Below, piece after piece: positions 17,771 through 53,522 of a DNA stretch of 64,000 nucleotides. The translations under genes and the position numbers were made by a program. Source of the DNA: Alphaproteobacteria bacterium. GTDB taxonomy: Bacteria; Pseudomonadota; Alphaproteobacteria; UBA9219. Numbering within the stretch: position 1 is the first letter of the stretch; the number at the start of each line of letters is the position of its first letter. Location: positions 996-64,995 of the forward strand of contig JAQUHK010000002.1 in the NCBI GenBank assembly GCA_028683655.1, in the 5' to 3' direction. The notes below the pieces were generated by a model. That model saw only the letters and a list, made by a program, of their open reading frames with translations. It did not search any database and had not been told where the DNA came from.

Positions 17771-18035
17771 CTGCATGCACCCAAGTCGCATTCTCGATCA
17801 AATCACCACCGCAACAGATAAACGGTTTGAGCTTGTCGCGTGTATTGCTGACGCAATAGTTGAAACGACAATGGAGGTCGGTTACTGCGCGCAGGTAACT
17901 CTCATAGACAAAGGCTTCACGCATCAAGATGTAGCATATCTCTGGCATTTTGCCTGTGCGCTTGCTGACGTTGAACTTAAGTGCAGCAAGAACGGCATTT
18001 GTTCCCCTTTCGAGAAGGGGGTGCGCTATGCATAA
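17763..18035 (+). CDS. Hypothetical protein (90 aa)
   Basis: ATG at 17763 preceded by ggaggaag; overlaps neighbouring genes by a few nt. Confidence 0.35.
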   Translation: MINCMHPSRILDQITTATDKRFELVACIADAIVETTMEVGYCAQVTLIDKGFTHQDVAYLWHFACALADVELKCSKNGICSPFEKGVRYA

Positions 18036-18315
18036 AACGAAAGCTTGCTCGTCCCCTGCCTACATTAAGAAAGAGAGAATATCAAAACCAACAGAGAAAC
18101 TAACGCATAGAGAAGTCGAAATTTTGACTTGGAGCGCGAGAGGCAAGACACGCTCGGAAATATCCATCATACTGTCACTTTCTGAAGAAACAGTCAAAGA
18201 TCATTTAGCAAGAATCCTTCGGAAGCTGGGAGCAGTTAATAAAGTGCATGCTGTTTCAATAGCGTGTGTTCTAGGACTGATTGTGCCCTATCAAGAAAGC
18301 AACTTGAACGAGTGA
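18028..18315 (+). CDS. LuxR/GerE-type HTH transcriptional regulator (DNA-binding domain only)
   Basis: LTHREVEILTWSARGKTRSEISIILSLSEETVKDHLARILRKLGAVNKVHAV matches the GerE HTH. Confidence 0.65.
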   Translation: MHKTKACSSPAYIKKERISKPTEKLTHREVEILTWSARGKTRSEISIILSLSEETVKDHLARILRKLGAVNKVHAVSIACVLGLIVPYQESNLNE

Positions 18316-18533: not shown

Positions 18534-19589
18534 GTGCTTAGTGGTGCTCAAAAAGAAGTAGACGTGGCTAATCAACCGATTATAACGCCTTGTAATGCTT
18601 GGAAGAACAAGGAATTCTACCTTAAAAATCTTTTGCAAGACCCTTGGTACGCCTTCACTTCAAAACTTCTGAGTGCAATCTACGTGGCAACACACGATTT
18701 CTTTGAAAAGAAATCTATCAAGCCTTTTGTTTTCCCGATTACAACGGGCTCTGTCAGCAGCCCCATGGGCATGGGAAGTGATTCTCTTCCTGTTCAGATA
18801 TCACTGAGGGGCAATGATGTCTTCCTAGCCGATTCCATGCAGTTTTCGCTTGAAGTCGGAACTAGGCTTAATCGAGATGGAGCGTACTATGTTATGCCAA
18901 CCTTTCGTGGGGAATCTGTTGATTCACGTCACTTAAATGAATTTGTTCACGCCGAAGTTGAGATTCCCGGAGTGCTTAATGACGTTCAAGATCTGGCTGA
19001 AGGCTATATCCGCCACCTCGTGGCTTACTTGCTCGAAAACTGTGAAAAGGAAGTAGCAGAAATTGCTGGAGACATTGATCATCTTCTTCTCTTGTCGGCG
19101 CGACGCGATCCTTTCACAAAAATTTCCTACAGCGATGCGATACAGGAAATTTTATCCGTGGATGGTGCGCTAGAAGATATTGGCACTGGGTTCTCCAACA
19201 TCACAGCTCTTGGTGAGAAAGCCCTTATGCGCAAACATGGCGACTTCATCTGGTTAACTCATATGCCATGGAGAAATGTGCCGTTTTATCAAGCACAATT
19301 GCAGGGCACCGCCTATTCGATGACGGGTGACCTTCTTGCCGGAATAGGGGAAATTCTTGGATGCGGGCAGCGTGTTGGCTCGCTAGCAGATCTTGAAGAG
19401 TCCCTGCGGGTTCACAATGTTAGCGCAGCGGGTTATGAGTGGTATGCTGAAATGCGTGATCTTTGCCCTATGCAAACCTCTGGCTTTGGCCTTGGAATTG
19501 AGCGATTTCTGCTTTGGGCAACACAAACAAATGATATCCGGAATTGCAGCCTCCTGTATCGTGATCACAACCAGATCTTTTACCCATAA
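18534..19589 (+). CDS. Class II (subclass IIb) aminoacyl-tRNA synthetase catalytic-core paralog / AsnA-like amino-acid ligase, no anticodon-binding domain
   Basis: Motif 2-like PTFRGESVDSRHLNEFVHAEVE (fRxE); motif 3-like SGFGLGIERFLLWAT. GTG start 6 nt after AGGAGG. Length 351 aa is a catalytic core only. Confidence 0.6.
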   Translation: MLSGAQKEVDVANQPIITPCNAWKNKEFYLKNLLQDPWYAFTSKLLSAIYVATHDFFEKKSIKPFVFPITTGSVSSPMGMGSDSLPVQISLRGNDVFLADSMQFSLEVGTRLNRDGAYYVMPTFRGESVDSRHLNEFVHAEVEIPGVLNDVQDLAEGYIRHLVAYLLENCEKEVAEIAGDIDHLLLLSARRDPFTKISYSDAIQEILSVDGALEDIGTGFSNITALGEKALMRKHGDFIWLTHMPWRNVPFYQAQLQGTAYSMTGDLLAGIGEILGCGQRVGSLADLEESLRVHNVSAAGYEWYAEMRDLCPMQTSGFGLGIERFLLWATQTNDIRNCSLLYRDHNQIFYP

Positions 19590-19620
19590 ACCTGTCTACC
19601 TTATATGAAAGGCCTTCACC

Positions 19621-20505
19621 ATGACTCTAGATATTGCATGGCCAAGCAGAGAAAAAAAAGATCGCGCTCGCGAAACAGTGGAATATTTCAATCCGAAAGC
19701 TAAAGATTATGACAAGACGGATGAACAGAGCTATTGGGTTTTTTCTGATCGACTCTTGTGGAGGTTGTTAAACGACCATATTTTGAGCGATTTGGCAAAA
19801 ATTAAGCCGTCATTTTCTCTTCTCGACGCAGGCTGTGGCACAGCGCGCTGGTCGTCAAAGATTTTAGAGGCTTACCCACAAAGTAGTGCAACTCTTCTGG
19901 ACATTACGCCAAACATGCTCGAAGTTTCTAAACAGAAACTTGAGAGCATGGGGCTTTCGTCACGAGCTGTATTGAAGCAACTGGATCTGAATGATTTAGA
20001 AGGCTTTCCGTTAAATCCACACGATTTGGCAATTTGTTTTCACAACGTGCTAAGTTTTGTTGTTGATCCTGCGGCAGTCATTCGAAGCCTTGTGAATAAA
20101 ATCAACGGTGGAGGAACGATATGTCTTGTTATTCCCAATCTTTTCCATGCCGTAAGTTTCAGCGCATCACTCGGGCGAATGATTGAGGTTAAGAGAGCCA
20201 TGAAGTCCTGCGCCGTCAAGTTTACAGATGAGGTTCCTGAGATGTGGGTATTCTCACCTGACAAAATCAAGAAAATCTTTGCATCTGCCGGTGTTTTGGA
20301 CTGCAGCGTCTTTGGCTTTCCCGTAACAGTATACCCACAGTTCGAAGAGACACAAATTGTAGGCAACAGCTCAAACAACAGCAAGCTTTTTGCAAATGAT
20401 GCTGCCGTTCAAACGTTGTTCGAAACTGAGCTGGTTTTATCAAACCAGCAAGAAGCGGCAGCACGTGGAAACAATCTGTTGGTAATTGCAAGAAAAGCAA
20501 CGTGA
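19621..20505 (+). CDS. Class I SAM-dependent methyltransferase
   Basis: LLDAGCGTARWS motif I (G-x-G-x-G). Confidence 0.7.
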   Translation: MTLDIAWPSREKKDRARETVEYFNPKAKDYDKTDEQSYWVFSDRLLWRLLNDHILSDLAKIKPSFSLLDAGCGTARWSSKILEAYPQSSATLLDITPNMLEVSKQKLESMGLSSRAVLKQLDLNDLEGFPLNPHDLAICFHNVLSFVVDPAAVIRSLVNKINGGGTICLVIPNLFHAVSFSASLGRMIEVKRAMKSCAVKFTDEVPEMWVFSPDKIKKIFASAGVLDCSVFGFPVTVYPQFEETQIVGNSSNNSKLFANDAAVQTLFETELVLSNQQEAAARGNNLLVIARKAT

Positions 20506-20569
20506 TCCTGTTTCTGGCATAACTTTATTATGAAATGAGCCACCGCATCAGCGGTTTATTGGGGGAAGA

Positions 20570-21859
20570 ATGCAGGCCAAAGATTTTTCGGATAGCTGCG
20601 CTCGTATTCGAGACGCCTTTATCCAGTCATTTCAAGATGCTCAGTTTGTCAATTTCGGCGTTAAGCCTCTAGTTCCGGAAGCTGATCAAAGCGTCATTTT
20701 TGTCGGTGCCTCTATTTCTGCTTTCAAACCATTCTTAACCAACCAATTGGTCTTTAACCAGAAATTCGATAACATGGTGCTTGTGCAACCATGTTTGCGT
20801 TTACACAATCTCAATAACCTTCTGAAGACACCTGTTCTTCAATACTACAGTTATTTCAATATGCTTGGCGCACTATGTCAACCATCTGCCGAAAAGCTAA
20901 CGATTGATGCCCTTGTCCGTTTCGTGGGTCAAATAATGACGAAAGGCATCATTAGAGCAAGCCGTCAGGAAACACCTTATTACTCAATATTCAATAATGC
21001 ATTCTCTATTGAACTTGACACACGTCCACCAGAATATTACAGCTGGATTTTTGGCACCAAAGAGTACATTGGGAAAGGCGTGACTCTTGCTCTTTCTAAC
21101 CACAACAAGAACTTCTGGCAGTTTAGCGTCAAAGATATTAGCAAGCCAGGTGCTGCTGCCTTGCCAGAAAACTTTGGAACAGGATTTCAGGATGTAGGCA
21201 ACCTTATCCGCCTATATGACCATAGTGGTCGACATATTGCGTCCGAAATTGGGCTTGGAATTGAAACAATTCATCAAGCTCAAAGTAATTGTGCGAGCCA
21301 GGTTGAAAGCTATGCGTACAAATCCATTCTTGAAAAGGTGTGTTCTAACGCCAGCGACCATTTTGTCGACTCAGCTGTTACATCGACAATCATCGTACAA
21401 GCAGGCGTGCGCGACGAAAATTCAAAAAGGGGTCAGCTTCTGAACAAAGCTGTGCGTAATACCGTATACACGGGATTAATAGAAGGGATGAATTTGGATC
21501 AAATAACGCGATCCACAGACACCTTGAATCAATTTTTAGGTGGCTCCCCATCAAACGCTGAAGACGTGCGCAAAATTGTAGAAAAGCAGTACTATGCTGC
21601 GATAAAGAATATTACAAATCTTGGCAGAGTTTTATCATCACCGCCCTCATCTGGGCGCGATGAGCATAGCCGAAAAAAGCTTGTAAAAAAAGTAATGAAC
21701 CTTGCTGATGGTGAATACTATATTCCGGATGTTGTGAGGGATCATCTTTTAAGCCAAAAAGGTCTGGTTGATCCTAGTCAGAATGGAGCTACTCCCTATC
21801 GCCCGCTTGACAGGCTGTTCCAGTTCATTCAGTCCAATCCTGCGCCAATTATGTGCTAA
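20570..21859 (+). CDS. Divergent alanyl-tRNA-synthetase catalytic-domain-like protein (paralog of 23076..24380)
   Basis: PLVPEADQSVIFVGASISAFKPFL and VQPCLRLHNLNN...YFNMLGA parallel AlaRS SLVPxNDPTLLFTNAGMxxFK and QxCxRxxxxHNDxxNVG...TFFEMLGN. The GDTGPCGPC block is absent. Confidence 0.45.
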   Translation: MQAKDFSDSCARIRDAFIQSFQDAQFVNFGVKPLVPEADQSVIFVGASISAFKPFLTNQLVFNQKFDNMVLVQPCLRLHNLNNLLKTPVLQYYSYFNMLGALCQPSAEKLTIDALVRFVGQIMTKGIIRASRQETPYYSIFNNAFSIELDTRPPEYYSWIFGTKEYIGKGVTLALSNHNKNFWQFSVKDISKPGAAALPENFGTGFQDVGNLIRLYDHSGRHIASEIGLGIETIHQAQSNCASQVESYAYKSILEKVCSNASDHFVDSAVTSTIIVQAGVRDENSKRGQLLNKAVRNTVYTGLIEGMNLDQITRSTDTLNQFLGGSPSNAEDVRKIVEKQYYAAIKNITNLGRVLSSPPSSGRDEHSRKKLVKKVMNLADGEYYIPDVVRDHLLSQKGLVDPSQNGATPYRPLDRLFQFIQSNPAPIMC

Positions 21860-21874
21860 AACGGGAGATATAAG

Positions 21875-22942
21875 ATGTCAGTGCTATTGAAAAATTTGGT
21901 TCGTCCGCGATGCCTTCAAGCCGGTGACTTAGTTGCTGCTGTAAGCTTATCTTGGGGTGGAGCTGCGATTTTTCCTCACCGGTATGAAACGGGCAAAAGT
22001 CAGTTTGAGCAGGCTTATGGCATCCGCGTGGTTGAGATGAAACATACGCTTAAATCTCCTGCGTGGATTGCTCAAAATCCGGCAGCAAGAGCCGATGACT
22101 TAATGGAGGCCTTCACAAATCCCGAAATATCAGGAATCGTGTCTGTCATTGGTGGCGATGATTCAGTGCTTATTTTGCCCTATTTGGATATAGGGGTAAT
22201 CGAGAAGAATCCGAAGCTATTTGTCGGTTATTCGGATACAACGGTAACTCATTTTGCTTGTTTAAAAGCTGGTGTGACAAGTTTTTACGGCCCCAGCATT
22301 ATGGCAGGATTTGCTGAAAATGCGGGTTTGCATAGTTATATGCGTCATTCTATCGAGAAAACCATGTTTTCACCTGAACCCGTCGGAACCATTATGCCAG
22401 CACAGGGCTGGACTACCGAACATCTTGACTGGGCCAGTCCTGAAAATCAAAAGCAGGCGCGAAAGATGAATCCTAATACAGGCTGGGTGTGCTTGCAAGG
22501 CACAGGCCGCACACAAGGTCGCTTGATTGGCGGGTGTGTAAGTACAATGCAGATGATTGAGGATACAAACATATGGCCAGAGCTTGATGTTTGGCGCGAC
22601 GGAATTCTTTTCTGCGAAGTCTCTGAGGAACTATCGTCAGCAGATGACTTCAAATTATGGCTACGCCATATGGGAGAAAAAGGCATATTGCAGGTTCTTA
22701 ACGGCATTCTCTTTGGGCGTCCCAGTGGACAAACGCCAAAAGCCGATTGGCATTTGTTTGACGAGGCATTTCTTTCGGTGATCCGTGATGAGCTTTCCCT
22801 GACAAGCCTTGCCATACTCTCACATCTGGATTTTGGCCATACGGACCCTATGTTTGTATTACCCTACGGTGTCATGGCCGAAATTGACTGTGACAAAACC
22901 TCGCTTGCTATACTTGAAAAAGCTGTGTTACCAAGGAGTTAG
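21875..22942 (+). CDS. Peptidase S66 family (LD-carboxypeptidase LdcA / microcin C immunity MccF-like)
   Basis: KLFVGYSDTTVTHFACLKAG contains the S66 GYSD catalytic-serine motif. Confidence 0.65.
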   Translation: MSVLLKNLVRPRCLQAGDLVAAVSLSWGGAAIFPHRYETGKSQFEQAYGIRVVEMKHTLKSPAWIAQNPAARADDLMEAFTNPEISGIVSVIGGDDSVLILPYLDIGVIEKNPKLFVGYSDTTVTHFACLKAGVTSFYGPSIMAGFAENAGLHSYMRHSIEKTMFSPEPVGTIMPAQGWTTEHLDWASPENQKQARKMNPNTGWVCLQGTGRTQGRLIGGCVSTMQMIEDTNIWPELDVWRDGILFCEVSEELSSADDFKLWLRHMGEKGILQVLNGILFGRPSGQTPKADWHLFDEAFLSVIRDELSLTSLAILSHLDFGHTDPMFVLPYGVMAEIDCDKTSLAILEKAVLPRS

Positions 22943-23075
22943 GAATGCAAAGGTGTGTTGGCGGAACAAGCAACAAGGTGTAAACTCTGGCGCAGGTTGA
23001 GATGTTTGGCGTGCTTTAGCGTGAGCCGAATAAATAGAAAAAAAGATACCAACTTAACAATGAAAAGGGGGAATT

Positions 23076-24380
23076 ATGACAACCACCACACAAATTATTC
23101 GTGAGCAATTTTTAGAGTTCTTTCAATCACGTGATCACATGATCATCCCTGGAGCCAGCCTAGTTCCCTCGAACGATCCAACTTTATTGCTGATAAATTC
23201 TGGCATGGCTCCTATCAAACCCTATTTTACAGCGGAAGCTGTGCCCATTAGCCCCCGCCTGTGCAATGTTCAAAAATGCATCCGCACTAATGACATTGAG
23301 GATGTCGGCGATCGTTCACATTTAACATTCTTTGAGATGCTTGGCAGCTGGTCGATTGGAGATTATTTTAAAGATGTCGCGGTAGAGCTTGCCGGAGATC
23401 TGCTGATGGGGAAGTTAAATATTCCTCAAAGTAAACTATATGCTACTGTCTATAAAGGAAACGACACAATTGGGCTAGCTTACGATGAAGAAAGCCATCG
23501 CGCATGGGAACGGTTGGGTTTCAAAAGCAATCAAATTGTTCCTCTTGGTGATGAAGATAATTTATGGGGGCCCGCTGGTGACACAGGGCCATGTGGACCA
23601 TGCACCGAGGTGTTCATTGATCTTGGCGACAAAACAGGTATTGGCAGCTATGAAGAAACTGGCATCTTTAACACACGCCGCTACATTGAGATTTGGAATG
23701 CTGGTGTCTTTATGCAGCTTAACAAAAATGCTGATGGCTCGTATGCCCCACTTCCATTTACCAGCGTGGACACAGGCGCAGGCCTAGAGCGTCTAACTAT
23801 GGCCATTAATGGCAATGAAAATGTGTATCAGGAGGAGCCGTACACATTACTTCTGACACAAATGCCTTCGGTTTTCTCGCAACATGAATGTCGTGTCGTT
23901 GCAGATCATGTGCGCGCCGCTTCACACCTTATTAGTGATGGTGTGTCGCCTGGGCGTAATGGCAGGGAATATATTACGCGACGCCTTATCCGTCGAATGG
24001 AAACAATCGCCGCATGTCATCGAACAAAGATTCCATATCCAGAACTGTTAAATGTCGTGCAGGCTAAAGACGGCAGAAATCACGAGGAATTTAAAAAAAG
24101 CGACGCCTTAATTAGAGAAGTTGTTGCGGCGGAAGTTGCCGTGTTTTCCCGCACACTGTCTTCAGGTCTTAAGGCATTCGATAAAGTTACCCGTAAGTTG
24201 AATGGATCAGCTGAATTGCCAAGCCAACATGCTTTCAACATCGTTACGGCTCATGGCTTTCCCTTAGAGGCCCTTGAACAAATTGCGACGACGCGTGGGC
24301 TGCGTATTGATCGACCAGGGGTGGAGCTTCTTATGGATCGACACAAAGCACTGTCACGCGGCGCGCCAAAACCAAAGTAA
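23076..24380 (+). CDS. Alanyl-tRNA synthetase N-terminal fragment-like protein (aminoacylation plus tRNA-recognition domains only; no editing or C-Ala domains), 434 aa
   Basis: Near-collinear match to the AlaRS N-terminus: LVPSNDPTLLLINSGMAPIKPYF, CIRTNDIEDVG, HLTFFEMLGSWSIGDYFK, GDTGPCGPCTEVF, RYIEIWNAGVFMQ, SVDTGAGLERL, RVVADHVRAASHLISDGV. Ends where the editing domain would begin. Confidence 0.8.
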   Translation: MTTTTQIIREQFLEFFQSRDHMIIPGASLVPSNDPTLLLINSGMAPIKPYFTAEAVPISPRLCNVQKCIRTNDIEDVGDRSHLTFFEMLGSWSIGDYFKDVAVELAGDLLMGKLNIPQSKLYATVYKGNDTIGLAYDEESHRAWERLGFKSNQIVPLGDEDNLWGPAGDTGPCGPCTEVFIDLGDKTGIGSYEETGIFNTRRYIEIWNAGVFMQLNKNADGSYAPLPFTSVDTGAGLERLTMAINGNENVYQEEPYTLLLTQMPSVFSQHECRVVADHVRAASHLISDGVSPGRNGREYITRRLIRRMETIAACHRTKIPYPELLNVVQAKDGRNHEEFKKSDALIREVVAAEVAVFSRTLSSGLKAFDKVTRKLNGSAELPSQHAFNIVTAHGFPLEALEQIATTRGLRIDRPGVELLMDRHKALSRGAPKPK

Positions 24381-24423: not shown

Positions 24424-24525
24424 TGAAAGGAGACGTGCTGGACAACACACCTTTCTCATTATCTGTTGCGCACGTCGGATCGAGTAATTAGGAAAGGTTG
24501 ATAGATGCTTCTAATTAGAAATCAA

Positions 24526-24942
24526 ATGAAGGCATTTAAGAACACACTGCTTCTTGTTCTAGTTGCACAGGCAATCGTCGGATGTCGCGGACAAGAAAAA
24601 AACGACAAGCGAAGCGATTTTATGAAGCAGTGCATTTCATTCAGAACGAATGACAAAATTCATTCAGTCGTGTTTAAGCAAGGGCAAGTCGTTATAACAA
24701 GAAGCTTTCTTGCACCGACTAGATTTGAAAGTTTTTACGTTTGTTTAAATGAACCACGCTGTGAGGATAAATTGGAATCTTGGCATTTGGGACCAGACAC
24801 GACGGGTCGTTTTGTGCGGCTTGTGAGTCCGAGCTCATTACCTACTCCTACGATGGTAAAGCGTGTGGACAAAACCGAGCCATTGCTGGCCAGAGGGAAC
24901 GCATTTCACGCCACGATTAAAGAGTGCGTAGCTTATGAATAG
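24526..24942 (+). CDS. Putative lipoprotein (about 138 aa)
   Basis: MKAFKNTLLLVLVAQAIVGC is a lipobox-like signal peptide (IVGC). Confidence 0.4.
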   Translation: MKAFKNTLLLVLVAQAIVGCRGQEKNDKRSDFMKQCISFRTNDKIHSVVFKQGQVVITRSFLAPTRFESFYVCLNEPRCEDKLESWHLGPDTTGRFVRLVSPSSLPTPTMVKRVDKTEPLLARGNAFHATIKECVAYE

Positions 24943-24964
24943 GCCACAAAAACAAAGGAACACG

Positions 24965-26065
24965 ATGAAAAAGATTCAACGTAACAAATATCTAGCCTAT
25001 GCGAGCAACTTGAAGCGGGAAGAAATTAAACAGATTGCAACCTATGTGCTGTGGCTTCCCGATCAAATCATCGACTGCCATGCACACTGCAATCTGGACA
25101 TACATGTTAAATCTTTGTCCCCAACTGTCTACAATCATATGATGTCAACCTTTCCAAGTTTTAATTTGGATGAATCTGAATCTTGGACAAAAGTCTTGCT
25201 GCCCGGCAAGGACGTTCAGCACCTCCGTTTTCCACATGCTTTTCCTGGCATTGATCACAGGGCTGCAAACACGTATCTCTTGGAAAACTCGCCCGACAAG
25301 GACTTGGTCGCGATCTATGGAATCCCCAATGATATTCCCTACACAATTGAAACGCTTAATCATCCTCGCGCTTCGGCTCTCAAAATGTACTATTTATATT
25401 TAGATCCTCCAGCGAAAGATGTATATCAATTTTTTCCAACACAGGTTTTGAAAGAGGCTGAGCGTTTAAAAAAGCCGATCATTTTGCATCTTCCGAGCCC
25501 GCTCCCTCAATGCGTTGATCAAGTCGAACGTTTAGCACAAGATTTTCCTGAGCTGAAGATTTGCCTCGCGCATTTGGGTGTTTGCGAAACAGTTACCTCT
25601 GAATTGGAATCGGCCTTTCGGAAGATCAGGCCCTATCCCAATATCAATATGGACACGGCACTTGTGCCCTCTTCTAAAGTTGTAAGTTTGGCCTACGATG
25701 TTTTGGGTTTGAAAAGGATCATGTATGGTTCGGATGCCCCCTTAAATCTCATCCGTTCAGTTTGGTATCAAAATCCAGAATTAGGAACCAGATTGGCAAC
25801 CGAATTCCCCTATCATTGGGCAAACCCATCAGAATACGTTAAATATAAACACCTAGCGCTGAATTCCATTCATGCTCAATGGACGGCCTTGGGGGCGATC
25901 CATTCCTTTTTTGATGGGAAGTGGGGTCCAGAACGCATTCAAGCTAAATTAGCCATTTTCCACAGCAACGCCAAAATATTTTTTGGTTTTCCTGATTATG
26001 AACCCACACGGCCTTGTAATACTATACCCAACCTGCAGAACAGCAACGAACAAACATTGAAATAA
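24965..26065 (+). CDS. Amidohydrolase-2 / TIM-barrel metal-dependent hydrolase family protein
   Basis: IIDCHAHC metal-binding start, internal HLPSP and LAHLG, late GSDAP motif. RBS aaggaac before the ATG at 24965. Confidence 0.5.
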   Translation: MKKIQRNKYLAYASNLKREEIKQIATYVLWLPDQIIDCHAHCNLDIHVKSLSPTVYNHMMSTFPSFNLDESESWTKVLLPGKDVQHLRFPHAFPGIDHRAANTYLLENSPDKDLVAIYGIPNDIPYTIETLNHPRASALKMYYLYLDPPAKDVYQFFPTQVLKEAERLKKPIILHLPSPLPQCVDQVERLAQDFPELKICLAHLGVCETVTSELESAFRKIRPYPNINMDTALVPSSKVVSLAYDVLGLKRIMYGSDAPLNLIRSVWYQNPELGTRLATEFPYHWANPSEYVKYKHLALNSIHAQWTALGAIHSFFDGKWGPERIQAKLAIFHSNAKIFFGFPDYEPTRPCNTIPNLQNSNEQTLK

Positions 26066-26082
26066 TCTTACAGGAGAACGAT

Positions 26083-27105
26083 ATGACAACCGTTAATTTA
26101 AGTATTCGTGATTTTGGTGACCATGCCTGTTTATTTATTCCTGTGCAGCGAGGCGTTCGTGTTCTGTGGGAACTGACCAAACGCTGCAATCTTGCATGCA
26201 AACATTGCTTCGTTCCTCCATATTCTAAGGAACGCGGTGATCTTTCTACGGCTCAATGCATCTCAATCATGGACAGTTTTCCTCAAGCTGAAGTCACACG
26301 CATTATATTCAGCGGCGGCGAACCTTTGACGAGGCGAGACATTCCAGAATTGATCCAAGCATCAAATGCGCGAGGCATTCAGGCCGCATTGTGCACAAAT
26401 GCGACACTTGTTACTGACTCTATTGCAAGAGATTTATATCGATCTGGACTTCGCGAAGCTTTCGTCAGCTTAGATGGTGCAACAGCTGAAGTTCATGACG
26501 GACAGAGGGGCCTTTCCGGCAGCTTTGACAGGACTATCAAAGGGATCAAAACGCTTAAGTATAATGGTCTGACCGTTGATATCTCCTGTATTCCGACAAA
26601 GCTAAACATCCATGACTTGCAAGAACTTCCCCGACTATGCAGTTCGCTTGGCTGTTCATCAATAACTTTCGGGGGATGGTTTCCTAAGCAAAACATGCGC
26701 GGCACTGGCGGTGATCTGACGCCTGACGCTCAATCAATGACTAAGTTCCTTCACTCATTCCGAGAGGTCGGTGAGAAAGCCAACATGCCTATGCACACGA
26801 GCAGGCTTGTTCCTCACGCGCCGCTTGAAGCTTGTCCCGCTGGCGTATCTATCATTGGGATAGATGCCAGTGGCCACTACCACCCATGTCTCAATATTCC
26901 TACAACGCATTCCGAAATTACCGATGCGCTGAAGGCATCAATCACAGAAATCCTGAAGAGATTTAAAAAGATACCCGAACTGCCTACGTGCGCAAAAAAT
27001 TGCCCTAGCGGCGAAGAATGCTTTGGCGGCTGCCCAGCGGATAAAATCAATGGGGTAGATAGGGTATGCTCACAAAAAGGATTAGTTTCTTTACAAATTA
27101 GGTAG
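26083..27105 (+). CDS. Radical SAM enzyme with C-terminal SPASM-like Cys-rich domain
   Basis: CNLACKHC (CxxxCxxC) with downstream FSGGEPL. C-terminal CPAGVS...HYHPC...CAKNCPSGEECFGGC cysteine cluster. Confidence 0.8.
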   Translation: MTTVNLSIRDFGDHACLFIPVQRGVRVLWELTKRCNLACKHCFVPPYSKERGDLSTAQCISIMDSFPQAEVTRIIFSGGEPLTRRDIPELIQASNARGIQAALCTNATLVTDSIARDLYRSGLREAFVSLDGATAEVHDGQRGLSGSFDRTIKGIKTLKYNGLTVDISCIPTKLNIHDLQELPRLCSSLGCSSITFGGWFPKQNMRGTGGDLTPDAQSMTKFLHSFREVGEKANMPMHTSRLVPHAPLEACPAGVSIIGIDASGHYHPCLNIPTTHSEITDALKASITEILKRFKKIPELPTCAKNCPSGEECFGGCPADKINGVDRVCSQKGLVSLQIR

Positions 27106-27405: not shown

Positions 27406-27861
27406 TTAGATTTGGCCAGAATTTGCCTTAATAAGTCCAAGAAGAGCCGTAACACTGCTAAGCATCAATTTGGCGTCGCCTTCGGTGATTTCGTCAAGGA
27501 CGCTCCAATCATGCGCTTCGCGCAGACCTGCGACGGTGTCGATGACATGCTCAATATTTTGGCACTCATCGGGGGTTGAGCCGATATTGCGGGTGCTTTT
27601 CACAAACCTCTCGAAGACTTTGATAGAAGTGATGGCGGCAGCATTGTCATTATTGGCCGTATGCTGAGGGAGCTGTTTTTCTGTTGCCCGTTCTGCCTCA
27701 CAGCCGAGACTCGCCATATAGCCCGCGGCAATGCTGTCCGAAGCCCGATAAGCCAATCGTTCTGCTTCGCCATATTGTGCGGCTGTAAGCAACTCTCGCG
27801 CTTGCCGTAGCTGTTCCGTTGCTTGATCGAATAGGGTTTGGCTGTGCGCTGTCATCATCAT
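27406..27861 (-). CDS. Conserved island-backbone hypothetical protein (151 aa), helical
   Basis: Paralog at 51800..52201 (MMMTAHSQTLFDQATEQLR vs MMMNSHSQTLFDQATEQLR). Shared REAHDWS motif. Confidence 0.5.
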   Translation of the reverse strand: MMMTAHSQTLFDQATEQLRQARELLTAAQYGEAERLAYRASDSIAAGYMASLGCEAERATEKQLPQHTANNDNAAAITSIKVFERFVKSTRNIGSTPDECQNIEHVIDTVAGLREAHDWSVLDEITEGDAKLMLSSVTALLGLIKANSGQI

Positions 27862-29090
27862 GCCGCCAGTGAAAAAATCGGGTCATGTCTTGCCGCATCG
27901 GGACTGATAAGTTTAAGGGGCCGTGACGGCGCATTATGTTTTTGCGCCGCCTTGCGCAAGTCAAGGCTTGCCGTTTGCATCGGACGATTACCTAGCACAC
28001 GCTCTTTTCCGCCGATGGCTTTGATTGCGGCGGCAATCTCCGGCTCCTCCAAAACATGGATGTGCATCGGCGGTGTCATGACAGGTTCTCGACGTTTAGG
28101 GGCTAACAGAATGATGTTCTGGGCATCGAACAGGGCCGCAAAAACCTCTCGCACACTCCCGTCACAGGGGATTTGAGGACTTGGCGCGCTTTGGACAAGG
28201 CCGCCCCAGCTACGCTCGCCAATCTCTTGATCCGCTGCTTTGAGTATAGACGACACCACACATTCCAAAACACCTGCATTCGGCAGGCTGCCGTTGCTGA
28301 TAAACTGGCATTGCGTTACAGGCGTTCCCTTAAAGGTAGAAAGACCCTTGGTAAAGCTAGCCATCACCTTTTGCTTCGCATTCGGGCTTTCCCAACTCAC
28401 AACAAAGTTATTGGGATCAATCGTTCCGTCAGCCATCCGCACAAACTGGACATCCACGGGTACTTTGAATCTATCTTCAAGCCCATGCACGCTCTCAATC
28501 TTGAAAAGTGCACTCTCTTCATCCTTACCGAGATGCGCTCCCAACTTTTCTTGGATCGTGACAATACTTCTATTGTCCGGCGCAAACTCGAATATCTCAC
28601 CGACAGGTACACTGCCATCCTTGAACCCATGCGTTGCGTAGTAATCAATGCTGGCTTGAATAAGAGAGTGGCCGAGCCCGCCCTCTGGACGCCTCTTTGC
28701 ATATGGCTTCTCAAGAATTATCTTCTTCATCTCGGAAGGCAGAATGCATACATCCTCGCTATAAATCCCGCGATGAACATCGATGTCATTTCCGTTTCTT
28801 TGCAAAAAGAGTGAACGGAAATTGATCGTCGCACCAACAATCTTTGGATCGCAAGTATCCCATGCAGTGGCAAAGAATAACACTTCAACGTCGCCTGCAG
28901 ACATGACTTTCATGGCGCGTCGGAAACCAACAGCGTCAAATGTCGCTCCATGGATTTTGGCTTCATGTTGAATCGAGTCGCGCAGAATGCCGCTCAACGC
29001 ACAATTGTGGAGGATGTCTTTCTCGTTCTGGGGCAACACGGCGACGTTGAGTCCGCCCATGAGCTGTTGAAAGTTTTTTGTTTCAATCAT
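27858..29090 (-). CDS. Conserved island-backbone hypothetical protein (410 aa)
   Basis: About 75% identical paralog at 52198..53445. No recognisable catalytic motif. Confidence 0.55.
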   Translation of the reverse strand: MIETKNFQQLMGGLNVAVLPQNEKDILHNCALSGILRDSIQHEAKIHGATFDAVGFRRAMKVMSAGDVEVLFFATAWDTCDPKIVGATINFRSLFLQRNGNDIDVHRGIYSEDVCILPSEMKKIILEKPYAKRRPEGGLGHSLIQASIDYYATHGFKDGSVPVGEIFEFAPDNRSIVTIQEKLGAHLGKDEESALFKIESVHGLEDRFKVPVDVQFVRMADGTIDPNNFVVSWESPNAKQKVMASFTKGLSTFKGTPVTQCQFISNGSLPNAGVLECVVSSILKAADQEIGERSWGGLVQSAPSPQIPCDGSVREVFAALFDAQNIILLAPKRREPVMTPPMHIHVLEEPEIAAAIKAIGGKERVLGNRPMQTASLDLRKAAQKHNAPSRPLKLISPDAARHDPIFSLAA

Positions 29091-29167
29091 TGTGCGACAC
29101 CCAAAATTTGAGGAGCCAAAACTAATCCGAGTTTATCACAAAATCCTGCACATTCACTGGGGGCTTA

Positions 29168-29821
29168 TTACTTTCGTTTCTTTTTGGGCAGGCCGGAGCT
29201 TTTTGCCCAGAAAGCATCGAACTCACGAAGGTAACGCTGGGCGACCTGCTTGGAATAGATGGTTACGCATTCGCGTTTGGAGGCGTTATCTGTCAGCGGG
29301 ATAACGACATAGTCCCCATAAAGGTACCACGGGGCCACATCCTTAAACTCGTCATCAAGGAGCTTATAGCTGCAATAGCTGAGCGGTGCCCCCAGCTCAC
29401 CTTCTTGCACAAGAACCTTGGCATCCAGCCCTTCGATGGCTTCCATGCGTGCAATATGTTCGGCGGCATAATCGTCGGCAATCGGCATATAACGCGCATC
29501 CCCGAAATTGAACTGGCGAATACGACCACCTTTGCGCACAGTTTCGTAAATATGGTCGAGAAGCTGGCGATACCCAGTTTTTCCGCTGTAGGTACGCATC
29601 TGGTGCTTGCGGACACAAACGCCTTCATTCTCGGTAAACTCGATCCCTTCCTGATCCAAAACAGTCAGGATACGCGCTAGCGTTCTTTCTTGGGGCTGCA
29701 CGGTTTCATTTTCAATCTGGCGGATCGTCAGGCGCGTCAGCTCGCACTGATCGGCCAATTCTTCCATCGACCAACCGAGAAGCCCACGTGCGCCCCGTAT
29801 CTGTCTGCCTGTAATGCTCAT
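29168..29821 (-). CDS. XRE-family HTH regulator with C-terminal unknown domain (217 aa)
   Basis: MSITGRQIRGARGLLGWSMEELADQCELTRLTIRQIENE. Near-identical copy at 53523..54176. Confidence 0.7.
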   Translation of the reverse strand: MSITGRQIRGARGLLGWSMEELADQCELTRLTIRQIENETVQPQERTLARILTVLDQEGIEFTENEGVCVRKHQMRTYSGKTGYRQLLDHIYETVRKGGRIRQFNFGDARYMPIADDYAAEHIARMEAIEGLDAKVLVQEGELGAPLSYCSYKLLDDEFKDVAPWYLYGDYVVIPLTDNASKRECVTIYSKQVAQRYLREFDAFWAKSSGLPKKKRK

Positions 29822-35952: not shown

Positions 35953-36198
35953 TTAAGACTCTGGCCCTTCCTCATCAGAGAAAAAGTCAGCGACTTCAGT
36001 ATTTATATGCTCAACCATTGAGATAATGCTCTCCTTCTCTGTATCAGTAAATTTACCCTCCAACTCAGGCTCATCTAGCCTTCTTGTATTGATCAGATCT
36101 TTGATCATGTCGGTATAACTAAATGCTGTCTTTTCACCAGCAACCAGTTTATGAACCGATATTTCTAACTCTTCATTTTTGCTAAATACCAATTTCAT
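35953..36198 (-). CDS. Small acidic hypothetical protein (81 aa)
   Basis: ORF overlaps the downstream gene start by 4 nt (operon-like). Confidence 0.35.
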   Translation of the reverse strand: MKLVFSKNEELEISVHKLVAGEKTAFSYTDMIKDLINTRRLDEPELEGKFTDTEKESIISMVEHINTEVADFFSDEEGPES

Positions 36199-38522
36199 TC
36201 TTCACCTCGAAAGTCTTTGAGATTGTACTTCTTTACTCGCTTTTTAATTGATGATTTTCCTCCGTCTGCGACTTCGGCTACTAGGTCTACCACGCTCTTT
36301 CCACCAATACTGCCCTCTAGTGGATTTGAAGAGATAGTTATTTTATTATTATCATTAGTACACATCACTATGTTTTGGGCATCACCTAACATAGGTATTG
36401 TGGCGTTATGAGAAACAAGAATGATTTGTTTTTTTAATTTGCATTTCTTGATCGCTGAAAGTAGTCCTGCGTTAATATAGCTGGTGGCAAGGTTATCTTC
36501 TGGCTGATCAATTATTAAAGGCGCACAATCAGAATCCCATCCAAGCACCAAGTCTAGAATGACGGATGTCTTCCACCCAGCACTCAAATGATCAAAGTTT
36601 CTTCCGTCCTTTGTTATGATTTTGTAGGTTTTTTTATTCATTTCTGAAAACCTACGGTTCACATAGTTCTCGAACTCTTGATAACTAGTGATCTTAGGGT
36701 CTCTTCTCTTAAACCTGTCTTTAAACAAGGACTCTGGCGTTATTCCTTCAAATGAACCAATCTGTATATCTGCTCTAAGGGTTTCGTTTATTACCTCCAG
36801 AAAGCTGTTCTTAGATAACTCAAACTTATTCTCAATATGAAGTCTATGCCCCATGGAAACGATTGGTTTATTATCAATCGTTATTGAGAACTGAGATATT
36901 TTGTCCAGTGCTTCATAAAACTGTTTGTGGTATTTCAAATATTTTTCCATACTATCCAATAATTTTTGAAAGCTTTGCGTTCTCGATTTAACCTTTTGAT
37001 CTTCTTTCTCCTGAGCATTATCTAATTCTAACCTATGCTCCTCAATTACTTCTCTAACAGTTTTTTCAAGAAGAGAGTTATTGAACGCTTCAATTAATTC
37101 ATTATTTAGGGCCTCAACTAATTTAGTGTCGTGCGTTACGGTGGGATTGCTTGAGAGGATTCTATCTATTTCATCAAGAACTCTCTTGTGACGATCATAA
37201 TCTGCTTCTGAATAACCAATTAACTTCGACTCCCTATCATTTGGTAGAATAAACCGTATAGGATTATCATGAATTTCTTCTGTAACTATCAATCTAGATA
37301 AGGCGGGGATTTTGCTTAACGCTCCGTGCAATAATTCTATTTCTGTTATAGACTGAGCAAGGTCTGTTAGATTAGAGCTTAGGTCATGTAAGACATTTAC
37401 AATTTTTTGTCTTTCAACTTCATCGGGAGGGAAAACGCTTTTTAAAATTGAAATATTCTCAATAGTATTGTTGCGATCTCTGTGATCACAAACTTTCATA
37501 ATATAGTTCTGATTAAAATAATGTGGGTGTTGTCCTGATGGATTTTTAACCTCTATATCTTTTATGTTGTAAGGAGTTCTAATGTAATCACTCTCTTCAA
37601 TTTTATTCACAATTTTACGATACAAAGAATCAACAAATAATGATTTTCCACTAGAAGAACCGCCGATCACAACATTTAATCCAGGTGTCAGCTTTACGTC
37701 TATGTCAATATTTTCATTTTTGAGTGAGACCGATTCAATACATTCAACCCAAGCATCTGGTTTTTTATCATATACCAACCTAGATGATTCAGAGAGCGAC
37801 AACCTAAGACCACTGAATGTTGGAGATGCGAGCATCCATGTTGGGACAAAATTTGATGCCTCTTGACCTGCTTTACAATCAGGATAGGTTTCGGGCGTGT
37901 AATTGTCTGAGGCAGTGATTAGGTTTACAAACTCCTTTATGCCTAGACGCTCAAAATAGTTATGCGTTCTTTCTAAACCACTAGTTCCTCTCGCTGTAAA
38001 TCCATCAAAATGATTGTAATAGATATTTCTTTCCATGGTTTTGTCGAACTCGACCCCATTTGGTATCGATTTATCAAATGTAGAGTGGTTTTGTCCTCCA
38101 TGCGGAAGCAGTAAAAACTCATAATTATCGAAACAATTCATTATTGCTTCTAAACTTGGAACATCATCATCATTGGTAACAGTTTTTTTAGGATACAGAC
38201 TGTCTAGTTTTTTATTAACGTCATCAATAATTGTTTCGTTGATTTTTTCAGCGTTAAAAATCATATGACAATGATAAGGCCTGCATTCTGTATAGTTTCT
38301 TATATGTAGTTCTACACCGAGAAGGATATTGTCAACAGATTGAACAGCTTCCAAATATACCTTTTTGTTGATAAAGTTATGATCCGTTATGGAGATTAAG
38401 TATGGCTGTTCCTCTGCAATTTTTTCTATGCCTGCTATTAGCGCCTCCAAATCATAATTCTCATTAGGGCAGTCAGGATTCTCTGAAGTGTGGATATGAA
38501 CATCGATGAATACTGGTTGCAT
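36195..38522 (-). CDS. PHP-domain phosphoesterase fused to ABC/SMC-like ATPase (Ppl-like candidate anti-phage protein)
   Basis: N-term FIDVHIHTS and ISITDHN (PHP His motifs); Walker A GGSSSGKS; Walker B PLIIDQPEDNL. Confidence 0.6.
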   Translation of the reverse strand: MQPVFIDVHIHTSENPDCPNENYDLEALIAGIEKIAEEQPYLISITDHNFINKKVYLEAVQSVDNILLGVELHIRNYTECRPYHCHMIFNAEKINETIIDDVNKKLDSLYPKKTVTNDDDVPSLEAIMNCFDNYEFLLLPHGGQNHSTFDKSIPNGVEFDKTMERNIYYNHFDGFTARGTSGLERTHNYFERLGIKEFVNLITASDNYTPETYPDCKAGQEASNFVPTWMLASPTFSGLRLSLSESSRLVYDKKPDAWVECIESVSLKNENIDIDVKLTPGLNVVIGGSSSGKSLFVDSLYRKIVNKIEESDYIRTPYNIKDIEVKNPSGQHPHYFNQNYIMKVCDHRDRNNTIENISILKSVFPPDEVERQKIVNVLHDLSSNLTDLAQSITEIELLHGALSKIPALSRLIVTEEIHDNPIRFILPNDRESKLIGYSEADYDRHKRVLDEIDRILSSNPTVTHDTKLVEALNNELIEAFNNSLLEKTVREVIEEHRLELDNAQEKEDQKVKSRTQSFQKLLDSMEKYLKYHKQFYEALDKISQFSITIDNKPIVSMGHRLHIENKFELSKNSFLEVINETLRADIQIGSFEGITPESLFKDRFKRRDPKITSYQEFENYVNRRFSEMNKKTYKIITKDGRNFDHLSAGWKTSVILDLVLGWDSDCAPLIIDQPEDNLATSYINAGLLSAIKKCKLKKQIILVSHNATIPMLGDAQNIVMCTNDNNKITISSNPLEGSIGGKSVVDLVAEVADGGKSSIKKRVKKYNLKDFRGEE

Positions 38523-51799: not shown

Positions 51800-52201
51800 T
51801 TAGTCCATCAATGGAAACAAACACCTAGCATACTTCAGCACCTCGCCCACACGTTGCAGTGTCAATTCAGCATCGGCCTTGGATATGTCGTTAGGGAGGC
51901 TCCAGTCGTGGGCTTCACGCAGGACTTTGACGTCTCCTACGATGCCCCAAGCTTCCTTCATTGCATCGGACGTTGTTCTGGCATTCCAGATATGGGTTGC
52001 GAACTTCTCAAAGATTTCATCTGACGGGGTGGCAGGCTCATTGTCGAGCTGGGTCATGTAACTGGCCGCTATGGTATCCGATGCTTGCAAAGCCAGCTTT
52101 TCACTTTCGGCATATTGACCTGTTTCAAGCGCGGATTGTGCCAGCCGGAGCTGTTCCGTTGCTTGATCGAATAGGGTTTGGCTGTGTGAGTTCATCATCA
52201 T
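51800..52201 (-). CDS. Conserved backbone hypothetical protein (133 aa), paralog of 27406..27861
   Basis: See the paralog. Confidence 0.5.
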   Translation of the reverse strand: MMMNSHSQTLFDQATEQLRLAQSALETGQYAESEKLALQASDTIAASYMTQLDNEPATPSDEIFEKFATHIWNARTTSDAMKEAWGIVGDVKVLREAHDWSLPNDISKADAELTLQRVGEVLKYARCLFPLMD

Positions 52202-53445
52202 GCCGTTAATGAGAAAATCGGGTTGTATCTGGCCGCGTCGGGCGCAATGAGCGTCAAGGGACGGTTGGGCGCATCATGCCGCTCGGCAGCTTTGCGAAGA
52301 TCAAGGGATGCCGTTTGCATAGGCCTGCCGCCTAGCTCGCGCTGTTCTGCCCCCAAGGATTTAAGCGCGGCAACAATCTCTGGTTCCTGTAAAACATGAA
52401 TATGTATTGGTGGTGGCACAATGCCCAGCAAAGGGCTGGATCGCCTTGGCGACAACAAAACGATGTTCTGCGCCTTGAACAAAGCCGCATAAACATCCTG
52501 TAAACTCCCGCCGAGAGGAACAGCAGGGCTGGCCTCTTGCCGAGGCTTAGCGAGACTCCCCCAACCACGCTCACCGATCTCTTGCTCTGCCGCTTTCAGG
52601 ATGGAGGCTGCAACACATCGCAACACACCCGAATTGGGCATTTGGCCATTGCTCATAAACTGGCATTGCGTCACAGGCGTTCCCTTGAAGGTCGAAATGC
52701 CTTTGGTAAAGCTGGCCACCACTTTTTGCCGAGAGTCCGGACTTTCCCAACTCACGACAAAGTTATTGGGATCAATCGTGCCATCTGCACGCAGAACATA
52801 GCGAACCTCTACGGGTAGCTTGAATAGACCAGCAGGAAGGCGGCCACTGGCAATTTTCAGCAACGCACTGTCTTCACCGCGCCCAAGGGTCGCACCCAGA
52901 CTTTCCTGAACAGCGATAATCTTGCTGTTATAGGGAGCAAACTCGAAAGCTTGTCCCACAGGGATGATGCCATCCTTGAATCCATGCGTTGCGTAATAAT
53001 CTATGCTGGCTTGAATAAAGGGCAAGCCCAATCCGTTTCTTGGAAGAGACTTGGTTCGTGGCCTTTCAAGAATGATCTCGCGCATCTTTGCGGGAAGCAA
53101 AGCCACATCCTCGCTGTAGATGCCGTGATGAACATCTATGTCATTCCCGTTTCTTTGCAAGAAGAGTGACCGAAAGTTTATAGCCGCGCCAACAATTTTC
53201 GGATCACAAACATCCCACGCGGCAGCGAAGAACAAAACTTCCACATCATCGGTGGACATAGCCCTCATAACTTGGCGAAAGCCTACGGGATCGAATGCCG
53301 CGCCATGCACCTTGGCTTCGTACTGGATGGCATCGCGCAGCATACCGCCAAGCGTGCTGCAATGAATGACATCCGAGTCAATTTGCGGGAGAATGGCGAC
53401 GTTAAGGCCGCCCATGAGCTGCTGAAAGTTTTTTGTATCAATCAT
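52198..53445 (-). CDS. Conserved backbone hypothetical protein (about 415 aa), paralog of 27858..29090
   Basis: MIDTKNFQQLMGGLNVAILPQ start, same as the paralog. Confidence 0.55.
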   Translation of the reverse strand: MIDTKNFQQLMGGLNVAILPQIDSDVIHCSTLGGMLRDAIQYEAKVHGAAFDPVGFRQVMRAMSTDDVEVLFFAAAWDVCDPKIVGAAINFRSLFLQRNGNDIDVHHGIYSEDVALLPAKMREIILERPRTKSLPRNGLGLPFIQASIDYYATHGFKDGIIPVGQAFEFAPYNSKIIAVQESLGATLGRGEDSALLKIASGRLPAGLFKLPVEVRYVLRADGTIDPNNFVVSWESPDSRQKVVASFTKGISTFKGTPVTQCQFMSNGQMPNSGVLRCVAASILKAAEQEIGERGWGSLAKPRQEASPAVPLGGSLQDVYAALFKAQNIVLLSPRRSSPLLGIVPPPIHIHVLQEPEIVAALKSLGAEQRELGGRPMQTASLDLRKAAERHDAPNRPLTLIAPDAARYNPIFSLTA

Positions 53446-53522
53446 TGTTGCGACACCCATAATTTGAGGAGCCAAACTAATCCGAGCGTATCACAAAATC
53501 CTCTACCTGTACTGGGGGCTTA

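Follow-up and report, generated by a model that had tools for sequence, protein, structure and literature searches.

Only one pair of enzymes is experimentally known in which parts derived from alanyl-tRNA synthetase (AlaRS) act as an aminoacyl-tRNA-dependent transferase system, and it belongs to a single Streptomyces pathway, the ascamycin cluster of Streptomyces sp. 80H647/JCM9888 with its genes for AcmD, AcmF and AcmE (Zheng et al. ACS Catal 2024, reviewed in PMC12945691). AcmF is an AlaRS-like protein of 370 aa that has lost the residues for ATP and alanine activation (N219Q, D232E, with Glu232 essential) and moves alanine from Ala-tRNA-Ala onto the nucleoside sulfamate nitrogen, while AcmD, an extra AlaRS of the cluster, supplies the Ala-tRNA, tolerates ascamycin better than the housekeeping enzyme does and mischarges Gly and Ser (PMC12945691; protein sizes from the ascamycin table of open reading frames (ORFs) in PMC4257720, AcmD 871 aa). 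In the microcin C system, the MccF peptidase hydrolyses the aminoacyl-nucleotide amide and suffices alone for immunity, LdcA is non-protective, and MccD is a methyltransferase-fold enzyme, a 3-amino-3-carboxypropyl transferase, that alkylates the phosphate (PMC8323819). We describe here a gene for an AlaRS with catalytic and tRNA-recognition domains only (hereafter mini-AlaRS) in 64,000 nucleotides from an Alphaproteobacteria bacterium (GCA_028683655.1, contig JAQUHK010000002.1, positions 996 to 64,995 of the forward strand; hereafter the window). It comes last in a row of five closely spaced genes on the same strand (18534-24380). Among them is an AcmD/AcmF-type pair, one partner of which is a natural mini-AlaRS, and they form a microcin-C-like module without MccB.

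The mini-AlaRS is an intact, selectively maintained aminoacylation unit without editing or C-Ala domains. Its ORF is the longest at its site, with an ATG start, 434 codons and a purine-rich Shine-Dalgarno sequence, AAAAGGGGGA, at 3 nt spacing from the ATG. An earlier note on this DNA had described an AlaRS aminoacylation and tRNA-recognition unit ending where the editing domain would begin, and this was borne out: Pfam tRNA-synt_2c matched at profile positions 2-430 of 552 (E 3.9e-113), the closest solved structure was that of the N-terminal 441 fragment of E. coli AlaRS (residues 3-437, E 9.5e-77), and the C-terminus coincides with the end of that crystallised 441-residue aminoacylation fragment. 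The NCBIfam models TIGR00344 (alaS) and NF002436/PRK01584 (bacterial short AlaRS) gave 383.7 and 371.9 bits, respectively; the former falls short of the full-length cut-off of 457, as the match covers no more than profile positions 2-429 of 847. We searched with tblastn, using E. coli AlaRS 462-876 and the C-terminal parts of four other AlaRS, and detected no remnant of an editing or C-Ala domain, either in the window or at the locus of the 82% identical orthologue (L002, GCA_053526855.1; loci fetched for comparison are labelled L, further AlaRS proteins P), and tblastn also detected no second alaS in the 64-kb window or at L002. The catalytic blocks quoted in the note are present in the translation (AGDTGPCGPCTEVF, RRYIEIWNAG, SVDTGAGLER). 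According to MAFFT and phmmer alignments with E. coli AlaRS, class II motifs 1-3 are retained, no catalytic residue of motifs 2 and 3 is lost, and the alanine-binding R69 and D235 that the note had singled out are kept together with the rest of the pocket (W170, E209, N212, V214, G237 and the motif 3 Arg). Against the L002 orthologue dN was 0.107 with saturated synonymous sites (pS 0.785), and the mini-AlaRS is therefore a maintained gene under purifying selection. Another AlaRS-like match in the window, the third (51830-52045, E 7e-4), was rejected as spurious.

The note had also called the gene stand-alone, which does not hold, since the mini-AlaRS closes a conserved mobile module of five genes, and its role is defined by partners that the stand-alone reading missed: a dead AlaRS paralogue, an AsnA-like core, a methyltransferase and an MccF-type peptidase. 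Exactly the same five genes occur at L002 amid wholly different flanks (hupB, lon-clpX-clpP-tig and a tRNA-Val abutting the 3' end), which identifies the five-gene block as the unit. All five genes are under purifying selection (dN 0.10-0.26, dS saturated). The class II core has no anticodon-binding domain; its best NCBIfam match was the archaeal-type asparagine synthetase A (211 bits, below cut-off), followed by AsnRS, and its motif 2 (FRGE..RHLNEF) and motif 3 (GFGLGIERF) are intact. The block lies in a mobile island: type I restriction genes and helix-turn-helix (HTH) regulators are upstream of it, and downstream come a MobA/VirD2 relaxase, ArdC and a tyrosine integrase. The GC content of the block is about 5 points lower than that of the housekeeping flank at L002. 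We found no ThiF-family (MccB) gene among the five module genes and no sulfate-activation or sulfotransferase genes among the neighbours of the mini-AlaRS.

The third gene of the block encodes a protein that is AlaRS-like across 355 columns (hhalign 99.3%, E 2.7e-20). The motif 2 Arg is kept, the GDTGPCGPCTE loop and RYIEIWN are lost, the motif 3 Arg is replaced by Thr, and SEIGLGIET stands at the SVDTGxGLER site of AlaRS (D235 to E). Exhaustive HMMER searches recovered hundreds of relatives, 122 cluster representatives at E<=1e-30 and 439 at E<=1e-10, where a word-indexed search had returned 7 clusters; a genome scan with the AcmF-like profile as seed gave no match, as the family is too divergent for pattern seeding. 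The best 150 matches were all 218-520 aa long. Among 153 members, R69 was present in 153, D235 was changed to Glu in 134 and kept as Asp in 1, and the motif 3 Arg was present in 3. The partner paralogues at L110 and L016 retain N303 and D400, the tRNA-Ala readers, which fits tRNA-Ala binding. By analogy with AcmF we predict that the paralogue is an aminoacyl-tRNA-dependent transferase. As in the AcmD/AcmF system, there are two AlaRS-derived genes, one competent and one truncated and dead, plus a hydrolase that removes, or here would remove, the aminoacyl group, and we found the mini-AlaRS paired with the dead paralogue in 9 loci. The two systems differ in that AcmD is full length, with editing and C-Ala regions, whereas the competent copy here is a 434-aa mini; the hydrolase is the alpha/beta-hydrolase AcmE in ascamycin and an S66 MccF-type peptidase here; the ascamycin cluster has sulfamate-forming genes, and here there are none, an AsnA-like class II core and a methyltransferase being found instead; and the ascamycin host is Streptomyces, whereas module hosts are gut and environmental Alphaproteobacteria, the Candidate Phyla Radiation (CPR) and others.

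On the topic of the peptidase and METHYLTRANSFERASES, the S66 protein matched Bacillus MccF-like structures at 5e-99 and E. coli and B. anthracis MccF at 1e-32, and murein LD-carboxypeptidases (LdcA) only at 1e-5 to 1e-7. The reference cluster and MccF sequence were taken from a real mcc plasmid (L019). Compared with E. coli MccF it is 30% identical (E 4e-37), and when aligned to the plasmid MccF it retains S118, E243, H311 and the adenine-stacking W186. These sequence features place the S66 peptidase in the MccF branch, and by analogy it would give the producer immunity. Close S66 homologues are also found as stand-alone genes in Spirosoma and Rhizobium replicons. Full-length MccD homologues are encoded in seven sister modules (L005, L009, L012, L013, L014, L016 and L110; E 1e-24 to 1e-36), L110 has an MccE-type pyridoxal phosphate-dependent decarboxylase (E 2.5e-11) and a carbamoyltransferase, and L016 has an S-adenosylmethionine (AdoMet) decarboxylase as an extra gene. 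The module thus resembles microcin C (MccA-F) in an S66 peptidase with the same triad and adenine-stacking Trp, in the homologues of MccD, MccE-N (decarboxylase) and MccY-like carbamoyltransferase in the sister modules, and in being mobile, and by this analogy its product is probably an aminoacyl-nucleotide. Microcin C has the ThiF-type MccB and a ribosomal MccA precursor, whereas the module has neither; the nucleotide-forming step, carried out by MccB in microcin C, would fall here to the class II core, and peptide extension, unlike in microcin C, to the aminoacyl-tRNA-dependent transferase. In the library that we searched, no literature was found on MccF together with an AsnRS-like or AsnA-like enzyme.

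Table 1. Genes and features of the mini-AlaRS block and its borders in the window.
Feature	Coordinates	Strand	Description
LuxR/GerE-type regulator	17950..18315	+	just upstream of the block; not conserved at L002; possible local regulator
Class II D/K/N-type catalytic core	18534..19589	+	351 aa; without anticodon-binding domain; seed gene of the widespread trio
Class I S-adenosylmethionine-dependent methyltransferase	19621..20505	+	294 aa; not MccD-like
AcmF-like, catalytically dead AlaRS paralogue	20570..21859	+	429 aa, MDD2324484.1; predicted aminoacyl-tRNA-dependent transferase
S66 serine peptidase, MccF branch	21875..22942	+	355 aa; predicted self-immunity hydrolase
Mini-AlaRS	23076..24380	+	434 aa, MDD2324486.1; catalytic and tRNA-recognition domains only; Ala/ATP pocket intact; R/T at N303/D400
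Stem-loop	24383..24439	+	directly 3' of the mini-AlaRS stop; probable 3' end of the operon

The sequence type of the mini-AlaRS is not that of proteobacterial housekeeping enzymes. The Sphingomonas housekeeping AlaRS (882 aa) carries KCVRAGGKHNDLDN together with N303 and D400 and is 61% identical to E. coli AlaRS and 37% identical to the mini-AlaRS, which is itself 37% identical to E. coli AlaRS and 45-53% identical to module copies elsewhere. Where Sphingomonas and E. coli AlaRS have RAGGKHNDL, the mini-AlaRS has IRT----NDIED; the 4-residue gap at E. coli 'GGKH' (K73) was considered as a lesion and rejected, because it is common to all 120 closest relatives, housekeeping-context enzymes included, and is thus a lineage type. 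The mini-AlaRS clustered in a neighbour-joining tree with module-linked minis of unrelated organisms, far from proteobacterial AlaRS, and this grouping, together with the 37% identity, indicates that the gene was acquired as an accessory one and is not a native alaS cut short. The mobile island, the non-proteobacterial sequence type and the same-length orthologues across phyla likewise argue for an accessory copy. Plasmid and viral collections contained only ordinary alaS, at 39% identity or less.

The Tupanvirus enzyme TuAlaRS has been called the only natural aminoacyl-tRNA synthetase (aaRS) of its kind (PMC10036535). It likewise consists of catalytic and tRNA-recognition domains only, has Thr at the Asp site and lacks the N/D readers, whereas it is viral, eukaryote-derived, 461 aa long and part of a viral translation gene set, and the mini-AlaRS is bacterial, of another clade and in a biosynthetic or immunity module; independent origin is likely because the mini-AlaRS groups with bacterial short AlaRS. 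Engineered fragments of E. coli AlaRS (441N crystal, PDB 3HXU; 461N) and Aquifex aeolicus N453 have the same domains and the same end point but are laboratory truncations that keep N303/D400, whereas the mini-AlaRS is a natural gene with R/T. The E. coli 461N fragment reportedly activates alanine and charges tRNA-Ala or acceptor-stem helices. For A. aeolicus N453, activation of alanine and charging of tRNA-Ala or acceptor-stem helices have been described (PMC10036535). Split AlaRS (the alpha/beta enzyme of Nanoarchaeum equitans, and L015) also separate the aminoacylation part from the editing and C-Ala part, but they encode the second half too (as the next gene in L015), and none is present in the window or at L002.

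Minis of 431-453 aa were found in at least 10 distant organisms. Partner families of the module surrounded 8 of 10 further mini-AlaRS relatives, 42-82% identical (L002, L005, L009, L012, L013, L014, L016 and L110), so that 9 out of 11 mini-AlaRS contexts, the window counted, carry such a module in unrelated organisms. Gene order and orientation differ among the modules, and there are add-ons: an ATP-grasp ligase, extra methyltransferases, an ABC exporter and an AdoMet decarboxylase. At L012 (10001-12543) and L014 (3544-6134) the end of the mini-AlaRS gene and the start of an ATP-grasp_4 ligase gene share 4 bp at the stop codon, which suggests that in this module subtype the two are translationally coupled and work as a pair. 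One of the two exceptions is L010 (10001-11317), a lone mini-AlaRS without partners among AbiEii, DNA-methylase and resolvase genes; this copy is closely related to the module-linked copy of L041 and may be what is left of a module, or else an orphan immunity gene. The other is L015 (10001-12638), a split AlaRS with a 439-aa aminoacylation gene and a 382-aa tRNA_SAD and DHHA1 gene 170 bp further on, in an actinobacterial-looking contig without the module. The CPR-type minis P0076 and P0081 (from a Moranbacteria metagenome-assembled genome, MAG), taken as housekeeping controls, proved to be module-linked, and K/R303 was rejected as a marker of module membership because L016 (N/E) and L110 (K/D) are also module-linked.

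L005 (4155-14111) and L110 (4422-13902) have a second architecture. They lack the class II core and contain paired dCTP-deaminase-like (DCD) genes together with the AcmF-like gene, the mini-AlaRS, an MccD-like gene and the S66 peptidase; L005 additionally has His_Phos_1 and a cytidine-deaminase-like gene. The DCD genes suggest a cytidine-based nucleotide product, and the AlaRS-derived pair is the only candidate in these two loci to make the aminoacyl-nucleotide bond.

We then scanned species-representative genomes with the class II core as seed. Relatives were found in 301 genomes, 80 loci were fetched, and partners within 8 kb of the core were counted in a hidden Markov model census. The S66 peptidase was present in 59 out of the 80 loci, an MccD-like methyltransferase in 43 and a window-type one in 25, and the trio of core, S66 peptidase and methyltransferase in 53. 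The AcmF-like gene (15 loci) and the ATP-grasp gene (8 loci) were much less frequent. From these counts, the trio is the basic unit and the AcmF-like, ATP-grasp and mini-AlaRS genes are add-ons; mini-AlaRS genes are almost always in modules, and most modules do not have one. Among the hosts are Alphaproteobacteria of gut and rumen, CPR, Clostridia, Bacilli and Actinomycetes. Some are in culture: the trio occurs in Providencia burhodogranariea DSM 19968, Rahnella sp. PCH160 and Virgibacillus alimentarius J18, and several strains of Streptomyces, Kitasatospora and Nonomuraea are hosts as well, with the AcmF-like gene carried by Streptomyces sp. TP-A0874 and S. cinnamoneus JCM 4633.

Some of the loci had other AlaRS-like or AcmF-like genes. 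At L095 (4858-7461; Coxiellaceae MAG) a trio of core, MccD-like and S66 genes has a full-length AlaRS of proteobacterial type (868 codons stop-to-stop, with GGKH and N303/D400) 2.5 kb upstream of it; the housekeeping alaS may be adjacent by chance, or the arrangement may be like that of AcmD. At L043 (4896-5567, minus strand; P. burhodogranariea DSM 19968) a 224-codon ORF, 4.3 kb upstream of the trio, matched only the AlaRS C-terminal (editing-type) profile and may be an AlaX-like trans-editing protein. In two Streptomyces loci, L070 (18529-20817) and L099 (12695-15589), the AcmF-like and S66 matches fell in one stop-to-stop ORF (763 and 965 codons, respectively), which could be a transferase-peptidase fusion or adjacent genes without an in-frame stop in high-GC DNA.

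We propose, with somewhat better than even confidence and judging from the sequence, that the mini-AlaRS is a functional editing-free AlaRS dedicated to the module, supplying Ala-tRNA to the transferase and possibly serving as a resistant back-up. From ATP and an amino acid, either Asn or Asp in all probability, the class II core would make a microcin C-type aminoacyl-nucleotide, a non-hydrolysable mimic of an aminoacyl-adenylate, which the methyltransferase-fold enzyme would then decorate. The mini-AlaRS would charge host tRNA-Ala, and the dead paralogue would take the Ala-tRNA-Ala and move alanine onto an amino group of the nucleotide in the manner of AcmF. The MccF-type peptidase would cut the aminoacyl-nucleotide amide within the producer and confer immunity, and the mini-AlaRS may also be a product-tolerant back-up like AcmD. 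Editing would be dispensable because the housekeeping AlaRS can presumably edit in trans. This reading is built on gene integrity, residue conservation, purifying selection, the recurrent neighbourhood, the dead-site signature, the MccF, MccD and MccE homologies, the mobile context and the non-proteobacterial ancestry; we infer the tRNA charging, the alanine transfer, the product chemistry, the immunity and the resistance. More broadly, and with confidence that stays a little below even, the modules might be an undescribed, mobile and widespread family of pathways that make aminoacyl-nucleotide antibiotics of the microcin C kind, or translation poisons acting within the cell, without MccB and almost wholly from recycled aaRS parts. 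An AsnRS/AsnA-like core would produce the nucleotide warhead, the dead AlaRS paralogue would form or lengthen it with Ala-tRNA, the editing-free AlaRS would feed or protect the system, and decoration of the MccD/MccE type and immunity of the MccF type would round it off. Bacterial minis, CPR-labelled ones too, would then be module components and not translation enzymes.

Several observations weigh against this proposal. Only 1 of the 80 core-seeded loci contains a mini-AlaRS (L041, a rumen alphaproteobacterial MAG), and 14 out of the 15 AcmF-containing ones have no AlaRS gene at all, so the transferase does not generally depend on a private AlaRS. The mini-AlaRS pocket shows no active-site change of the inhibitor-resistance type, and the block has neither tRNA genes nor, in the window, an exporter gene. 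The changes of the paralogue (D235E, ATP site lost) match those of AcmF by the published description of that protein and not by direct alignment, and the window methyltransferase is not MccD-like (E 0.075 against MccD). Finally, the G3:U70 readers N303 and D400 are replaced by R and T ('PGRNG', 'IVTAHGFP'), with an unambiguous alignment at both sites. We do not take this last loss as proof against tRNA charging, since TuAlaRS, with P/T at the same sites, is specific in charging G3:U70 tRNA-Ala and can stand in for yeast AlaRS (PMC10036535), and a 698-aa AlaRS in housekeeping context (P0033; neighbours Sua5 and rnpA-yidD-yidC) has Ser at position 400. In nine module-linked minis, 24 positions of the tRNA-recognition domain are invariant, and at 18 of them, those of the basic R310/R314/R315 helix among these, the residue is that of E. 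coli; on these sequence grounds the mini-AlaRS would charge tRNA-Ala.

The supply of Ala-tRNA has to be weighed against other roles, of which pure immunity is the nearest, though we regard it as unlikely. Here the product would mimic alanyl-adenylate and block the housekeeping AlaRS, for which the mini-AlaRS would be an inhibitor-insensitive replacement without any special supply role. Resistant aaRS copies are reportedly found in the mupirocin, agrocin 84 and albomycin clusters. AcmD itself is more resistant to ascamycin than the housekeeping enzyme (PMC12945691); the core-less L005 and L110, both with a mini-AlaRS, would have alanine as the warhead amino acid, and the lone copy of L010 among mobile and defence genes is what one expects of an orphan immunity gene. 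However, the window-type core is of the Asn/Asp type, the core is partnered in 59 of the 80 loci by an MccF-type hydrolase, which suffices alone for microcin C immunity, the lack of an AlaRS gene in nearly all AcmF-containing loci (14/15) tells against this role too, and the adenylate-pocket residues are all canonical. The earlier note had itself suggested an immunity copy, which was in the right direction as to an in-cluster enzyme of the AcmD kind but did not see that the role is set by the other members of the module. Its second suggestion, a generator of Ala-AMP, found no specific support, as the entire tRNA-recognition domain is conserved at AlaRS-typical positions. Slightly less probable again is the related idea of a tRNA-independent ligase, which would make Ala-AMP and pass alanine directly to a small-molecule acceptor, e.g. 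a nucleoside hydroxyl or amine that mimics A76. Both G3:U70 readers and C-Ala are lost, and truncated aaRS paralogues such as AsnA and the amino acid:carrier-protein ligases act in this manner. But adenylate synthesis reportedly needs the catalytic domain alone, according to deletion work on E. coli AlaRS, and here a tRNA-recognition domain of 185 residues is kept in every member across phyla with the AlaRS-typical positions conserved. TuAlaRS charges specifically despite its N/D loss (PMC10036535), P0033 is also non-Asp at position 400, and the partner paralogue fits a user of aminoacyl-tRNA.

An intracellular role against phages or in abortive infection is about as doubtful, and we rank it just below the ligase: a translation-blocking aminoacyl-nucleotide would be made on infection, with the S66 peptidase as antidote and the mini-AlaRS keeping or restoring alanine charging. 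The modules are often in defence or mobile islands, with type I restriction-modification genes beside the window block and L009, AbiEii and a DNA methylase at L010, HamA and ParB at L014, and integrases at L005 and in the window, and the window block is without exporter. PADLOC, however, has no defence-system model for the aaRS-like or S66 genes and gave only a generic methyltransferase match, an ABC exporter adjoins the L012 module and a major facilitator superfamily gene is near L002, and the MccD, MccE and MccF homologues point to microcin-like secreted compounds. The idea that the gene is a broken or reduced housekeeping alaS, the truncated remnant of a sole AlaRS, can draw on the absence of another alaS within the 64-kb window, but we consider it very improbable in view of the constant length in distant organisms, the strong purifying selection without C-terminal remnant, the IRT----NDIED type at 37% identity to Sphingomonas and E. 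coli AlaRS (61% to each other), and the position in a mobile island that occupies a different chromosomal site in the 82% orthologue.

An AlaRS reduced to the aminoacylation unit is therefore no giant-virus curiosity, as such enzymes of about 435 residues recur in bacteria, nearly always in one kind of module. The AcmD/AcmF precedent is extended to a family with hundreds of cluster representatives in Alphaproteobacteria, CPR, Firmicutes and Actinomycetes, and the modules are possibly a new route to antibiotics that mimic aminoacyl-adenylates without MccB or a ribosomal precursor. The class II core has relatives in 301 species-representative genomes, culturable strains included, and the chemistry is thus directly testable. 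An editing-free AlaRS beside a housekeeping enzyme would also be a natural experiment in tolerating or exploiting the mischarging of tRNA-Ala with Ser and Gly.

At the borders of the block, the hairpin after the mini-AlaRS stop (-28.7 kcal/mol, z -5.1) probably marks the 3' end of the operon, and the conserved block of L002 likewise stops at the hairpin position. There, a tRNA-Val(TAC) gene (L002 11323-11397, minus strand), a typical insertion site of genomic islands, directly abuts the 3' end of the mini-AlaRS. Between 16000 and 28000 of the window we detected no Rfam elements (T-box, riboswitch, leader), and the counts of promoter and terminator consensus sequences were no higher than in shuffles. 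The genes that follow the module on the same strand (24505-27105) encode a lipoprotein-like protein, an Amidohydro_2 protein and a radical SAM/SPASM-like protein. The first of these (24505-24942) has a signal peptide and an IVGC lipobox without Pfam or NCBIfam match, in agreement with the lipoprotein gene of the earlier note, and the radical SAM protein had AhbD/NirJ-like best NCBIfam matches and weak matches to PADLOC viperin models (E ~1e-17). The three genes were considered as module members and rejected, being absent from L002 and beyond the hairpin.

Further downstream, a segment of three genes is present twice in the same orientation (27406-29821 and 51800-54176, both minus strand), with an ORF of 151 or 133 aa, an ORF of 410 or 425 aa without Pfam match and a near-identical HTH_3 protein of 217 aa. 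The two copies flank the region of 29.8-51.8 kb, which contains the relaxase, ArdC, the tyrosine integrase and large helicase-like ORFs, and they may be repeats that bound an integrated mobile element. Within it, a 775-aa ORF without Pfam match lies in a low-GC (36%) stretch beside an AAA_13 ATPase (36195-38522 and 39098-41377, both minus strand), followed by helicase-like ORFs of 1022 and 1090 aa; this region by the integrase looks like a defence-type island.

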